From NCBI GenBank assembly GCA_046482545.1, contig JAWOEX010000021.1, positions 64,001 to 128,000 of the forward strand: DNA of 64,000 bases, read 5' to 3'. A program made the position numbers and the translations under genes. How positions within the stretch are numbered: position 1 is the stretch's first letter; every line of letters starts with the position of its first letter. Source of the stretch: Candidatus Thorarchaeota archaeon (GTDB taxonomy: Archaea; Asgardarchaeota; Thorarchaeia; Thorarchaeales; Thorarchaeaceae). This document shows, piece by piece, positions 2,001 through 16,037 of the stretch. A model generated the notes under the pieces. The model did not search any database and was not told where the DNA came from. It worked only from the letters and a program-made list of their open reading frames with translations.

Positions 2001-2915
2001 TTATACGTAGAGTCTTCCCCGTAAGACAGTTACAGCCTTACCGCTGACCTTGACTTGGTTAATCTTCTCTTCATTACCTCTGATTTCCACGTACACCTTC
2101 CCTGGACGGCCAACAAAGTCTCCTTGTTCAATTACTATGCTGGTAACTGGATTAGAAGAATCCATCATACCGTATTTTACCATGTATGACGCCATCCCAC
2201 CCGCTGCAGACCCGCTTACTGGATCCTCGGGAACACCTAGACCAGGCGCAAAATGACGGGCATGAGCATCAGAAGTTTCCTCCCTTGCATCACGGGTGAA
2301 AACCTGAATAGAAACGTAATCGGAATCCTTGCGTAGCTCCTGAAGAGCTTTCCAGTCAGGACGAATTCTCTCAAGAGATCTGTATGTATTGACAGGAATC
2401 ATCAGGTGAGGAGTCCCAGTCGAGACAGTTTGAATGGGCTTCGGGGACATGATATCTGCAAGAGTCAAGCCAAGGGCGTTTGCATATTCCTTCGGATCGT
2501 AGCTTGTCAAGAATTGTGGGGGTTGATGCGTAATCTGAATTTCATAAACCTGAGAGCGTTCGTTTTGAACCACCTCTACTTCAAAGACACCTGTATTGGT
2601 TTCAAACGTAAACATTGTGATGTGATTCGTGGCCTGAGCGATGCCTTCACTCAGCAATGCATTAAACGCAGCTACAGTTGCATGACCTGAGAAATTGATT
2701 TCACGGTCTGGTGTCATGTACCTGAACCGATAATCGGCTATATCAGAATCCGATACGTAGACTGTTTCCCTTACATTGAACTCCCGCGAGATTTTGTGCA
2801 TCATTTCCCTGCCAAGCTCATCAGCACCTAGAATGACTGTTGCAGGATTGCCTCCGAAGGGCACGTCGGTAAATGCATCAACATGCACAACATCGAATTC
2901 ATATTCGTGAGACAT
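2001..2915 (-). CDS. PhzF family (diaminopimelate epimerase-like) isomerase
   Basis: VDAFTDVPFGGNPA, EINFSGHAT, EDPVSGSAAG, IEQGDFVGRPG motifs. Confidence 0.9.
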   Translation of the reverse strand: MSHEYEFDVVHVDAFTDVPFGGNPATVILGADELGREMMHKISREFNVRETVYVSDSDIADYRFRYMTPDREINFSGHATVAAFNALLSEGIAQATNHITMFTFETNTGVFEVEVVQNERSQVYEIQITHQPPQFLTSYDPKEYANALGLTLADIMSPKPIQTVSTGTPHLMIPVNTYRSLERIRPDWKALQELRKDSDYVSIQVFTRDAREETSDAHARHFAPGLGVPEDPVSGSAAGGMASYMVKYGMMDSSNPVTSIVIEQGDFVGRPGKVYVEIRGNEEKINQVKVSGKAVTVLRGRLYV

Positions 2916-3380
2916 CTTATGGGCATCTCCTTGAAGCATTATTATTCAGTACGCTAATTAACGATTCCATTGGCCTCATAGTATGAATGAAGCGGAACAA
3001 GAACAATCATTCATCATTTCCAGCAGAGAGAGAATATGAAACCTAAACCATGATTGAATGAGATACAACAGCGGCATGCGAATATCAGCATCAAGCGGAT
3101 TTTCATTCGTCTCGTCAACCTGAAATAACTGACTACTGATGTCTAGTAAAATCCAAGGGTTGGATATGACCTGATTATGAAACAGCCGCTCAGCATCTCT
3201 TGTTCTTATGTATTCGAGTCCTACATCAGGCTAATTCTCATCATTTTGACTCGCATCGTATTCGTTGTGTCAGATAATACTGTTTGCTGAACTGTGGTGC
3301 TGAACAAGCGTCCGGATGCAAAAAGGGGAATCTAGGCAATCAGGCCGCACAACATTATTATTTGTAGACTATGTGCTAAG

Positions 3381-4200
3381 GGCCAAGTGGGTATCCGTCT
3401 CCACGGAGCACGGAGGTTGAGGGTGTTGAATTTGCCTTCACCTAACAGAGAACAGCAATCATCGGACACAGGGTATCAAGTCCTGGAGAGTCCGCGGCTG
3501 TTCACCATGTCCAGACGGACCTCCTCAGCTACGGTGACAAGGCTGAGGTGGGTGATCATGACCACGCCGTGGCAAGAACTGTGGAAGACCTCGCTGTCAC
3601 CGGGAGTGATGATCCGGGATGACGACAGGAGGAGGAAGCCAGGACCGCGGGAGGAATCCCATTCCGATGAACGTAGACAAAGCCCTGCTAACTCACGGGC
3701 CTACGGGTACCTTGGGGGCGGTGACGCTGGCAGGGGAAGGCCGGAACACAGAAGTTTCAAACAGTGTACGCAACTGTAAGAAACAGGTCATCTGGAGCTC
3801 CTCACTAGGAGGGAGCTGGCGGGACATAGATTGCGAAGAATGTTCACCTAGGGGCACTCGGCTGCTAACGCAGCTGAGTATGTTGAACTCTTCGATAGGA
3901 ACACCGTTGCCCGCCAGAGTTCCCAGAGAACCTGTAGTAGTCATATCAATTAGACTCATTGGCGACAACTCCACAGTTGCCGGTTTTCGAGGGCTCCAGG
4001 TTCACCTTACAATCTGTTTCTTGTAATTGAGTGAGAGCAACTTCGTAAGACTTCTGTACTCCACCTAGTCGATAATGAAGAGCTGACTGCGTCAAGTAAG
4101 CTCTCAATGCATTTGAAGGTCTGGATCAAGAAAAGTAGGAAGCAGTACTTAGATGCTCACCGGGAAGGCCAGAAAGAGAGTGCAGATGCAAAGAATCCAA
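3381..4200 (+). ncRNA. Putative large structured non-coding RNA of unknown family (core 3381-4024, probable 3' extension to ~4200)
   Basis: GC-richer than its flanks, no credible ORF. More than 10 helices readable by eye, including nested long-range pairs 3778-3789/4012-4023, 3816-3823/3910-3917, 3450-3456/3497-3503 and 3928-3934/3997-4003. Non-Watson-Crick positions are G-U on the + strand. TATA-like TTATTATT at ~3355. Confidence 0.7.
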
Positions 4201-4224: not shown

Positions 4225-4358
4225 AAGCAAAAAGGTGGCGACCACGCGATCGTGGTAGGAGGGGGGAGTTTCGTAATTGAGGGCATGTAACGAAAAACTA
4301 GACGCGTGATCGCCTCAATTCATTCATGCCATTCCAACTACGTTTTCTTTCCTATCAC
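4225..4358 (-). ncRNA. Putative small structured RNA, copy 1
   Basis: 52-nt core (4252-4303) identical to copy 2, enclosed by 12-bp stem 4237-4248/4303-4314 whose single C-A on + is G-U on -. U-rich 3' tail on the minus strand; TATA-like element at 4382-4389. Confidence 0.7.
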
Positions 4359-4634
4359 GAATTTTGTATACCGCCGACTTCTTATTAAACTTCCGATTGT
4401 AGACTAGTTTAGTAGACTTTAACTTCTATGGAACTCGGTTACTCTTTCGAAGTATCAAGTCTGAGTTTTTTGGTATTCGAAAATATTGGGAAAGAAGATG
4501 CATGAAAGTCTACAAAAGCGTAACCAAAGTCGAAGCCAGAAGAACTTCTAGAGGCATAGAAGGTGACGAGTGCGCGGATATAGTGGTAGGAGGGGGGAGT
4601 TTCGTAATTGAGGGCATGTAACGAAAAACTAGAC
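4252..4634. repeat. Perfect 52-bp direct repeat, two copies (4252-4303 and 4583-4634)
   Basis: GTGGTAGGAGGGGGGAGTTTCGTAATTGAGGGCATGTAACGAAAAACTAGAC occurs twice, 331 bp apart. Confidence 0.95.
4376..4395 (-). promoter_or_regulatory. Probable BRE/TATA promoter of small RNA copy 1
   Basis: Minus strand CGGAAG-TTTAATAAGAAGTC; the 13-mer TTAATAAGAAGTC is shared with copy 2 at an equivalent distance from the predicted 5' end. Confidence 0.6.
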
Positions 4635-4684
4635 CACGCACTCGCCTTGTTTATTCGTCATACCCTATGTTTTCCACCAATCAC
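4555..4684 (-). ncRNA. Putative small structured RNA, copy 2
   Basis: 52-nt core (4583-4634) enclosed by 13-bp stem 4565-4577/4634-4646 of different sequence from copy 1; two A-C/C-A on + are G-U on -. Same promoter motif at 4701-4713. Confidence 0.7.
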
Positions 4685-4700
4685 AGGGTTCTAGAAAATG

Positions 4701-4719
4701 GACTTCTTATTAACTTTTG
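4701..4719 (-). promoter_or_regulatory. Probable BRE/TATA promoter of small RNA copy 2
   Basis: Minus strand CAAAAG-TTAATAAGAAGTC. Confidence 0.6.
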
Positions 4720-4831: not shown

Positions 4832-6481
4832 TTACTCGTAGGGGTGTGAGATGCTTTCCTCTTCCATTTTGTCAGGGCGACTGCGTTTCCTCCACTCCTT
4901 TATTGGCATACTGAACTTGTCCTCAACCCTGTCACGATGGATAGTATTCATAGTGCAGAATGGGATGATTCTTCCGTCAGGAACACTGTAATTGATATCA
5001 CAGTGCTGCACACGCTCCAAGTCGAAATTGTACGGATCTTGGAAGTGCATCATACCAATCATGATAATGCGGTGCATAAACTCAGATAGTGAGTCATAAT
5101 CGCCTTTCTTCAGAAAAGCACCAAGCAAATCTTTCATCAATCCTTTTCGCTTGACATGGCGCAGTCCTGCGGCTAGTTTGGCTTTGGCCCGCTTGCCGGC
5201 AGCGAACTTCCCATCCGCATAGAGATTGCAGATGCCTTCCATAAGCTCAATGAATTTATCCACATCGATAAGATTGGTAATCGGCTCGTATCTCCCATCT
5301 TCATTGATGTAAATGAAGGTAGCCATACCACAGGCAAAGTGAGCACTAAGTTCCAATTGTGGAGTTCCTTTCATGAGCCCCATTGCTCGACCGATAGGCA
5401 TCATTCCCGGCACCGGATACCATTCTGATGCGGGAATTTTGCCATCAGTCTGTTCTTCGATTTTGTGAATCACATCGGGGATTGTTATTCGCATTTCTTG
5501 CCGCTTCTCATAATCAATCCGTCCTGTGATGCTGACAGGCTGGAAGTTCACACAACGAACAACGTCCTGGTTCTCCACAGCAAACTCGATAATATCGCCA
5601 ACCTGATCATCGTTTACACCTCGTACAACTGTAGGGACAAGGACAATCGAATCTAGGCCCACCTCTCTGCAGTTTTCGATGGCCTGCTTCTTCAACGGCA
5701 GCAGGTTCATCCCTCGTGCCGCTTCATAGGGCTCGGGTGTCACACCATCAAACTGCATGTAGATTGTCGACAGACCAGCTTCTTCGAGCTCTTTGGTATA
5801 TTCAAGTGATTTACCAAGGCGTATGGCATTGGTTGCAATCTCAGTATGCTTGAAACCAACGTCTTTGGCCCAGCGAAGATACTGTGGAAGATGCTTGCTG
5901 ACGGTAGGTTCGCCCCCTGCAAATTGAAGTGCTGGAGTTGGAACAGGCTTGTTGCTTCGAAGGTTCTTCATCATTTCTAGAACCTCTTCAGGAGTTGGCT
6001 CATACACTTCACCAGATTCTGCGGCGTGAGCGAAACAAATGGGGCATCGGAGGTTACACCTATTGGTGACATCAAGAAGAGCAAGTGCAGTATGCGATTT
6101 GTGCTCTGGGCACTGACCACAATCTTCTGGACAACCGTGTACAGTCTCTGTGCGAGGGTTATCAAGGCCTACTGTTTTGTACCACCACTTCTGGGCTTTC
6201 CTGAACATGTCGGCATCGCCCCAGTAGACATCTATAAACTCTCCATGTTTCTCACATTCTTTCTTGTACATAACCTTGCCATCTTCTTCGTAAAGAGTAG
6301 CATCAATGACATTAACCTCATCATCTGCTAACAGGCAATCAGGGCATATGGATTGGGTAGTATATGGTAGCTGACGTATCTCGTGTTTCTCAACGTGAAA
6401 TCGTGAGATATCATGCTCTTCATCTTCGAAAGGAAGCTCACTAGAAGGAACTGGTTCAATATCTGGTTCCATGAAAATCAA
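4832..6481 (-). CDS. tes: Radical SAM tetraether lipid synthase (Tes / GDGT-MAS, MJ0619 family)
   Basis: N-terminal SICPDC...CEKHG, GCPEDCGQCPEHKSHTAL, radical SAM CNLRCPIC, GGEPT, C-terminal FQDPYNFDLERVQHCDINY..DGRIIPFC. Confidence 0.85.
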   Translation of the reverse strand: MIFMEPDIEPVPSSELPFEDEEHDISRFHVEKHEIRQLPYTTQSICPDCLLADDEVNVIDATLYEEDGKVMYKKECEKHGEFIDVYWGDADMFRKAQKWWYKTVGLDNPRTETVHGCPEDCGQCPEHKSHTALALLDVTNRCNLRCPICFAHAAESGEVYEPTPEEVLEMMKNLRSNKPVPTPALQFAGGEPTVSKHLPQYLRWAKDVGFKHTEIATNAIRLGKSLEYTKELEEAGLSTIYMQFDGVTPEPYEAARGMNLLPLKKQAIENCREVGLDSIVLVPTVVRGVNDDQVGDIIEFAVENQDVVRCVNFQPVSITGRIDYEKRQEMRITIPDVIHKIEEQTDGKIPASEWYPVPGMMPIGRAMGLMKGTPQLELSAHFACGMATFIYINEDGRYEPITNLIDVDKFIELMEGICNLYADGKFAAGKRAKAKLAAGLRHVKRKGLMKDLLGAFLKKGDYDSLSEFMHRIIMIGMMHFQDPYNFDLERVQHCDINYSVPDGRIIPFCTMNTIHRDRVEDKFSMPIKEWRKRSRPDKMEEESISHPYE

Positions 6482-15937: not shown

Positions 15938-16037
15938 TGGTGGAGATCTCCCGTACCTGTTGCTCTTCGCCGGGAGGGACGTAGATATACCAACAGGAGA
16001 CTTGTCAATTAGCCTCTTTGTACGGGATTATTTCTCC
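15938..16037 (-). ncRNA. Putative 100-nt three-way-junction RNA with tRNA-like 3'-ACCA
   Basis: Helices GGAGA/UCUCC-ACCA, UCCCGUA/UACGGGA, AGGCU/AGUCU and CCUGUUG/CAACAGG; TTTATA box 24-29 nt upstream (16061-16066). Confidence 0.6.

Follow-up and report, generated by a model that had tools for sequence, protein, structure and literature searches.

A probable small RNA gene family with a near-invariant core in Thorarchaeia

The locus

Between the tetraether lipid synthase gene tes and a PhzF-family gene, the window (the whole 64,000-nt stretch of Thorarchaeota DNA that was analysed) carries two copies of a short element on the minus strand (Table 1). Their 52-nt cores are 100% identical and lie 331 nt apart, and each is enclosed by a different closing stem and preceded by its own TATA-like box. 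The identity of the cores, as well as the pairing of stems that differ in sequence (12 bp in copy 1 and 13 bp in copy 2), had been claimed in an earlier note on this DNA and was confirmed, and the stem also covaries among class I copies of the family. The note also described the rest of the 331-bp unit as diverged apart from a 13-bp TATA-containing motif. That motif is indeed common to both copies, at a distance of 325 nt, but both leaders additionally keep blocks that are complementary to the core. The predicted minus-strand folds of copies 1 and 2 are more stable than all 200 shuffles (z -4.4 and -5.6, respectively), and the plus-strand folds give z of about -1.3 against shuffles. A third, divergent copy is present in the host genome (G000) at C24:24083-24190 on the minus strand.

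Table 1. Coordinates of the two copies, their parts and the flanking genes in the window
Feature	Position	Strand	Remark
PhzF-family gene	2001-2939	-	usual downstream neighbour of the main locus
Copy 1 ACC tail and U-tract	4229-4236	-	ACC at 4234-4236; probable 3' end/terminator
Copy 1 closing stem, 3' arm	4237-4248	-	
Copy 1 invariant core	4252-4303	-	U-run, predicted inner hairpin, motifs A and B
Copy 1 motif B	4252-4269	-	
Copy 1 motif A	4279-4287	-	
Copy 1 closing stem, 5' arm	4303-4314	-	12 bp with 4237-4248
Copy 1 5' leader, about 45 nt	4315-4360	-	putative start, from TATA spacing
Copy 1 leader anti-core blocks	4325-4330, 4335-4342	-	complement of motif A
Copy 1 leader anti-core block	4351-4358	-	pairs with motif B
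Copy 1 TATA-like box	4376-4388	-	in shared 13-bp motif; putative promoter
Copy 2 ACC tail and pyrimidine tract	4558-4564	-	ACC at 4562-4564
Copy 2 closing stem, 3' arm	4565-4577	-	
Copy 2 invariant core	4583-4634	-	
Copy 2 motif B	4583-4600	-	
Copy 2 motif A	4610-4618	-	
Copy 2 closing stem, 5' arm	4634-4646	-	13 bp with 4565-4577
Copy 2 5' leader	4647-4688	-	putative start; folds as own hairpin
Copy 2 weaker anti-A block	4659-4666	-	in leader hairpin arm
Copy 2 weaker anti-B block	4674-4684	-	in leader hairpin arm
Copy 2 TATA-like box	4701-4713	-	in shared 13-bp motif; putative promoter
tes (tetraether lipid synthase)	4832-6481	-	usual upstream neighbour of the main locus; NF045702, 649.7 bits (cut-off 450)

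Anatomy of the element

Three classes of the element can be told apart. Both window copies belong to class I, in which the closing stem comprises 12-14 bp and starts with GGCG. In this class the TATA-like boxes are concentrated 72-84 nt before the stem, a spacing that implies a leader of approximately 45 nt. The G000 copy on contig C24 belongs to class III. In classes II and III the stems are longer, start with GUGG or GGUGG and are preceded by a TATA-like box at about 28 nt, so that no leader is expected; the class II stem is also interrupted. The stem-closed body is predicted to measure about 82-100 nt, reaching about 130 nt when the class I leader is included. All classes keep a nearly invariant U4 run, motif A (CAUGCCCUCA) and motif B (ACUCCCCCCUCCUACC), and the stem is mostly followed by ACC. 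The fourth tail base in 124 automatically parsed copies, some with mis-parsed ends, gives ACCU in 58, ACCC in 17 and ACCA in one.

In 38 class I sequences, 96.9% of the cells of the closing stem are paired and 10 of its 14 pairs exhibit double changes, a level reached by none of 500 shuffles and far above that of slid controls. The same count found no compensatory change in the inner hairpin, the 3' arm of which is absent from class III, the most divergent class, and the linker between motifs A and B varies from 3 nt to a hairpin of 17-30 nt. The inner hairpin put forward in the earlier note is thus predicted by folding but finds no support in covariation, and the conserved core appears to consist of motifs A and B rather than of the hairpin. 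The alignments show a variable but paired closing stem which, together with the ACC tail, holds open a loop carrying the two near-invariant motifs. Judged from the same alignments, the covariation of the stem, with its tolerance of G-U pairs, is such as to fix one strand. Both the conservation and the covarying stem support the proposal of small RNA genes whose core is under strong selection, and the element almost certainly represents a functional RNA gene family.

Distribution and synteny

No Rfam match was found over the element at E values up to 5-10. BLAST detected it in 35 of 36 genomes of the host family and in the one sister-family genome; in the only genome missed (G001) the copy is cut by a contig end, and a class III copy is also present. 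A search with a sequence profile recovered the element in 26 of 26 family genomes and again in the sister-family genome, and gave seven weak matches among 123 other Asgard genomes. Those of the seven that were inspected look like chance: the best lies within a coding gene in antisense orientation, lacks a closing stem and was not found in two congeners, and the others lack motif B. A pattern scan of GTDB returned 114 matches, and among the 80 listed the titles are mostly Thorarchaeota, with Promethearchaeota as well and one Hermodarchaeota whose copy looks Thorarchaeal. IMG/VR yielded no exact match to the pattern. Exactly the same 50-nt core is found in 27 of the 30 best loci, and the copy number ranges from one to about ten per genome. 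The search of the host genome and of other Asgard genomes that the earlier note proposed thus gives three copies in G000 and a family that is Thorarchaeia-wide. As far as genome searches indicate, this is a multi-copy family present in every Thorarchaeia genome searched and not convincingly in other Asgard groups. In the literature covered, mostly open-access, neither a description of this RNA nor a paper on small non-coding RNAs of Thorarchaeota was found.

Across genera, the main locus lies downstream of tes and usually upstream of phzF, and other paralog groups keep their own neighbours, namely OsmC, metallo-beta-lactamase and membrane-protein genes. Such synteny argues for vertical inheritance and against a MITE or other non-autonomous transposon, for which many scattered, non-syntenic copies would be expected; the earlier note had named dozens of scattered copies with target-site duplications as the finding that would speak for a MITE, and G000 contains only three. 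No partner gene consistently adjacent across the paralog groups was found.

Several individual loci are of separate interest. The copies L039, L064 and L073, which represent one paralog group and the only copy of the sister-family genome (G037), adjoin a metallo-beta-lactamase gene, and this locus is possibly the oldest of the family. The metallo-beta-lactamase gene at L039 gives a weak tRNase Z match that falls below the Pfam cut-off. In L042, L050, L066, L068 and L074 the stem arms derive from different paralogs or have been lost, which may reflect either misassembly across the identical core or recombination, and the L068 copy adjoins an IS110 transposase.

BHB-type inserts

Homologous copies of the element in all three classes contain inserts of the BHB type. 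Ten distinct inserts of 30-32 nt were identified at six core positions, and removal restores the core sequence of the family in all ten, restoration being itself a requirement of the search. Seven have canonical BHB geometry (a 4-bp central helix, two 3-nt bulges and a flanking helix) under the rule that demands four central pairs and a flanking helix of at least 2 bp (bioRxiv 10.64898/2026.10.13.758758). The non-canonical three comprise two with 4/4 central pairs and a 1-bp flank and one with 3/4 pairs and a 5-bp flank. For the six inserts tested, 0-0.7% of shuffled versions satisfy the rule; when moved to other sites, the insert itself satisfies it at 0 to 16 of 69 positions.

Both window copies are intronless. 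The orthologue of copy 2, uninterrupted in G000, is interrupted by a 31-nt BHB insert in both congeneric genomes (L002:1393-1536 and the end of L094), suggesting from genome comparison that this insert was gained or lost within one genus; the G002 orthologue contains a second, non-BHB hairpin insert as well. Two other hairpins inserted in the A-B linker do not resemble BHB introns. The C24 copy of G000 has a non-BHB hairpin of 17-18 nt between motifs A and B, as do G001 and G002, which is possibly a fixed intron remnant.

Archaeal BHB introns are known in tRNA, rRNA and cbf5 mRNA (PMC2738675). The inserts described here resemble those of archaeal and Asgard tRNAs in being short hairpins with a 4-bp helix and two 3-nt bulges (PMC2738675; bioRxiv 10.64898/2026.10.13.758758) and in having been gained repeatedly at different positions, but their host is a small RNA that is neither tRNA, rRNA nor mRNA, and no paper on such a host was found in the mostly open-access literature covered. 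Given what is known of EndA (PMC2738675), the presence of the inserts implies that the minus strand is transcribed into an RNA in which the exact sequence of the core is important, and the restoration of the core upon their removal points to a spliced RNA rather than a MITE.

Leader complementarity and predicted self-masking

The 5' leader contains two conserved blocks that are complementary to AUGCCC of motif A and UCCUACC of motif B. The anti-B block was found in 60 of 72 class I leaders, compared with 20% of shuffles and 4 of 72 regions further upstream, and both blocks occur in 46 of 72 leaders, compared with 1.5% of shuffles; these counts include related genomes, so that the independence of the leaders is overstated. 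The variants of the anti-B block (GUAGG in 33, GUGGG in 27, GUUGG in three and GUCGG in one) differ almost exclusively by A to G opposite U and are thus G-U-compatible. In ten leaders, GUAGGA and GGGCAU are nearly fixed around a freely varying 6-nt spacer. The mean duplex z for motif B is -1.7 in class I leaders versus -0.2 upstream of leaderless copies. By inspection, the class II 5' end, commonly GUGGUCAGG, is itself complementary to motif B with one bulge.

In folding predictions, class I motif B has a pairing value of 0.70 in the nascent RNA and of 0.05 at full length, once the 3' arm has been made; for classes II and III the drop is from 0.57 to 0.10. With the 5' part shuffled, nascent pairing of motif B still amounts to 0.47 in class I and 0.35 in classes II and III, which indicates that the masking effect is partly compositional, and that of motif A (0.61 versus 0.56 when shuffled) is barely above its control. 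For window copy 1 at full length, the fold in which leader and core are paired reaches -42.9 kcal/mol, compared with -28.4 kcal/mol when the terminal stem is enforced. The predicted minimum of this copy is therefore leader-paired even at full length, and the leader may need to be removed. On the basis of these models, the 5' end appears to mask the core motifs until transcription finishes.

Traces in RNA libraries

Among RNA-library assemblies, words of the region occur in 24 runs belonging to 16 studies, in most of them at a small share, and contigs from four RNA studies cover the element. An RNA contig in X1 matches 4539-4673 of the window without any difference, and an 84-nt RNA contig in X11 derives from a relative. 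In run X2 the element is covered at a depth like that of tes, and DNA carry-over is possible. Since the contigs give no strand, ends or level, and the X2 depth does not set the element apart from tes, the support that they lend to expression is weak.

Comparison with known RNA classes

The unpaired, conserved C-rich motif, the presence of several copies, the own promoter and terminator and the proposed action on ribosome-binding sites are shared with RsaE of Staphylococcus and Bacillaceae (PMC2790875) and the multicopy LhrC1-5 of Listeria (PMC4132741). There is no sequence or Rfam relationship to these RNAs, and the Thorarchaeal element differs in its single long end-closing stem with an ACC tail, its approximately 50 invariant nucleotides, the masking of the motifs by the 5' end and the BHB inserts of some copies; its target is, moreover, a proposed one. 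The Methanosarcina mazei sRNA41 and sRNA154 are likewise trans-encoded archaeal sRNAs that, according to the parts of a review consulted (PMC5867862), were reported or proposed to mask ribosome-binding sites. No sequence shared with them was found, their targets have been identified, and the same parts of that review describe neither introns nor leader masking. The element may work like C-rich sRNAs, although it is a member of no family tested.

Y RNAs (see also bioRxiv 10.1101/312249) are similar in their length of approximately 90 nt, paired ends, pyrimidine-rich internal loop, U-rich 3' end and several paralogs. By inspection, the element has no conserved bulged-C helix for Ro binding, and Ro60 (TROVE) was found in 0 of 61 genomes, with positive controls in Deinococcus and Bacteroides, so that a Y RNA was rejected. 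A tRNA was dismissed given the lack of any ARAGORN or Rfam match and a fold consisting of one closing stem and a large loop. An H/ACA guide RNA is contradicted by the class I tail, which is ACC and not ACA, by the absence of a tandem G-A motif on inspection and by the lack of significant rRNA pairing, while boxes C (RUGAUGA) and D (CUGA) of C/D guide RNAs are absent from the core by inspection. The AUGA_GA quartet that marks SECIS elements in selenoprotein 3' UTRs (PMC11227280) has no counterpart here, tes has no internal stop and paralogs often follow divergent genes. Translation of the element as a micro-ORF (MPSITKLPPPTT) was also discarded, as some copies have AUA in place of AUG and the frame is disrupted between paralogs by the length of the linker. 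A surrogate for a missing 5S, RNase P or SRP RNA is not needed, all three being encoded elsewhere in the genome. Motif B shares 9 nt with the Thor CR-I of RNase P RNA but there is no CR-V, and with an intact RNase P gene on contig C34 of the host genome, the idea of an RNase P RNA fragment was set aside.

Search for targets

The earlier note suggested that the CCUCC tract pairs with Shine-Dalgarno sites. The host genome does use GGAGG, with 72 occurrences at the Shine-Dalgarno position versus four further upstream, which makes the idea possible, but no start region clearly beats the coding controls: in a duplex scan of the start regions of one whole genome, the best value was -23.7 kcal/mol versus -22.6 kcal/mol in controls. 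A five-base tract also cannot explain an invariant core of 50 nt. No conserved target in trans was found in rRNA, RNase P, SRP or 5S RNA, pre-16S leaders or start regions. Two of 35 duplex scans against rRNA, 5S, RNase P and SRP RNAs gave z beyond -2 (-2.8 and -2.9), and both sites were judged to be chance or not conserved; a match of 10 bp immediately before the 5' end of 16S rRNA is confined to the host genus. A bipartite pattern resembling the leader blocks, searched family-wide, matches about once per genome, scattered over unrelated genes, and none of the matches lies at an evident start codon.

Two different 16S-like matches were observed on separate contigs of G000 (C2:258-1487 and C33:32736-33583), one of which has an atypical 5' part; a second operon, a fragment or contamination may account for them.

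Interpretation

The reading that we tentatively prefer, with a confidence somewhat short of even, is that of a base-pairing RNA with two seeds that are masked while it is being made and are then released to pair in trans. The element would be transcribed from its own TATA box and, where the core is interrupted, spliced by EndA and RtcB. During synthesis, the 5' end would pair with motifs A and B; synthesis of the 3' arm would then let the closing stem zip and free both motifs, the leader being refolded or removed. The freed motifs could then serve as a two-part seed for a G-rich RNA similar to the leader blocks (GURGG, 5-7 nt, GGGYAU). The most plausible targets would be ribosome-binding regions, with translation being blocked as by C-rich sRNAs. 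The near-invariance of motif B, predicted to be largely unpaired in the full-length RNA (0.05-0.10), is in line with such a role, but a tRNA-like invariance over 50 nt exceeds what a short seed needs and counts against this reading.

Such invariance across genera speaks for a housekeeping RNA bound to protein or to the ribosome, a possible, if somewhat less probable, explanation. The U-run and C-rich motifs would be contact sites, for instance for Sm-like or KH-domain proteins or the small subunit, the stem and ACC tail a stabilizing handle, and the leader pairing would only guide folding. The near-constant U4 run, the occurrence in every genome of the group searched and the lack of an RNA target agree with it; the variable copy number (one to about ten), the lack of a partner gene consistently adjacent across paralog groups and the absence of Ro60/TROVE from the 61 genomes do not. 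It is doubtful, though conceivable, that the element belongs to an undescribed class of housekeeping small RNA with tRNA-level conservation and maturation by tRNA splicing, switched on by co-transcriptional strand displacement and acting on translation initiation generally or as a dedicated RNP. If the leader-core pairings were themselves the active fold, the element would be a compact double pseudoknot that functions as aptamer, sensor or ribozyme, and the leaderless classes would be a variant of it. Two short conserved pairings around a free spacer and the leader-paired minimum predicted for copy 1 are compatible with this, but classes II and III keep motifs A and B intact without any leader, no Rfam ribozyme or riboswitch matches, and the downstream genes differ among paralogs, all of which makes it improbable. 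A tRNA-mimicking minihelix, from which RNase P removes the leader and whose ACC is completed to ACCA, seems more improbable still; it would either be charged or serve as a decoy for the enzymes of tRNA processing. It would account for a stem that starts with G, has 12-14 bp in class I copies and precedes A-C-C, for the resemblance to host tRNA genes, which end in ACCA and a pyrimidine tract, for the tRNA-type introns and for the similar end of a second Thorarchaeal RNA at 15938-16037. It is opposed by the lack of a T-loop, D-loop or ARAGORN call, by the longer and interrupted class II stem and by a fourth tail base that is A in one of 124 copies, whereas CCA is encoded by most of the host tRNA genes listed, and it leaves the invariant loop unexplained. 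Least credible is an element that acts as DNA, such as a MITE, an attachment site or a replication signal. The variable copy number, the few chimeric or decayed-looking copies and the one beside an IS110 transposase could be taken as signs of mobility, but G000 has only three copies, several paralog groups are syntenic across genera, the G-U-tolerant covariation fixes one strand, BHB inserts make sense only in RNA, and IMG/VR holds no exact match.

As every searched genome of the group carries the RNA and its core hardly varies, its role is probably central. Should a general function in translation prove true, an anti-Shine-Dalgarno block and an anti-AUG-like block would be combined in one loop, rather than the RNA regulating a few mRNAs. 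Inserts of the tRNA type in a small RNA would extend the hosts of BHB splicing beyond tRNA, rRNA and cbf5 mRNA, and the ten inserts would offer a natural series of EndA substrates for the question of how such introns arrive, which was left open by a 2026 preprint (bioRxiv 10.64898/2026.10.13.758758). The conserved anti-core blocks allow the appearance of a target to be predicted concretely, and they provide a switch that is accessible to in vitro tests with an RNA of 90-130 nt.

Neighbouring elements

An ORF-poor dispersed repeat of approximately 320-350 nt lies at 3445-3797 of the window. It has roughly 55 copies in the host genome, occurs in 26 of 36 family genomes, has no Rfam match and is covered very deeply in RNA-library contigs when summed over copies. 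Its 5' part has what we take to be a resemblance to an IS200/IS605-type right end. A joint system of this repeat and the small RNA was rejected, since other genera lack the repeat between the RNA and phzF, and since the site at which it pairs best varies.

Another uncatalogued RNA, approximately 100 nt long, was observed at 15938-16037 on the minus strand. It has its own TATA-like box, a closing stem (GGAGA/UCUCC), a tail of the ACC/ACU type and a conserved apical hairpin, and BLAST matches to it occur in 23 of the 36 family genomes. Apart from a short C-rich stretch and the architecture of its ends, it shares no motif with the family of the 52-nt core.
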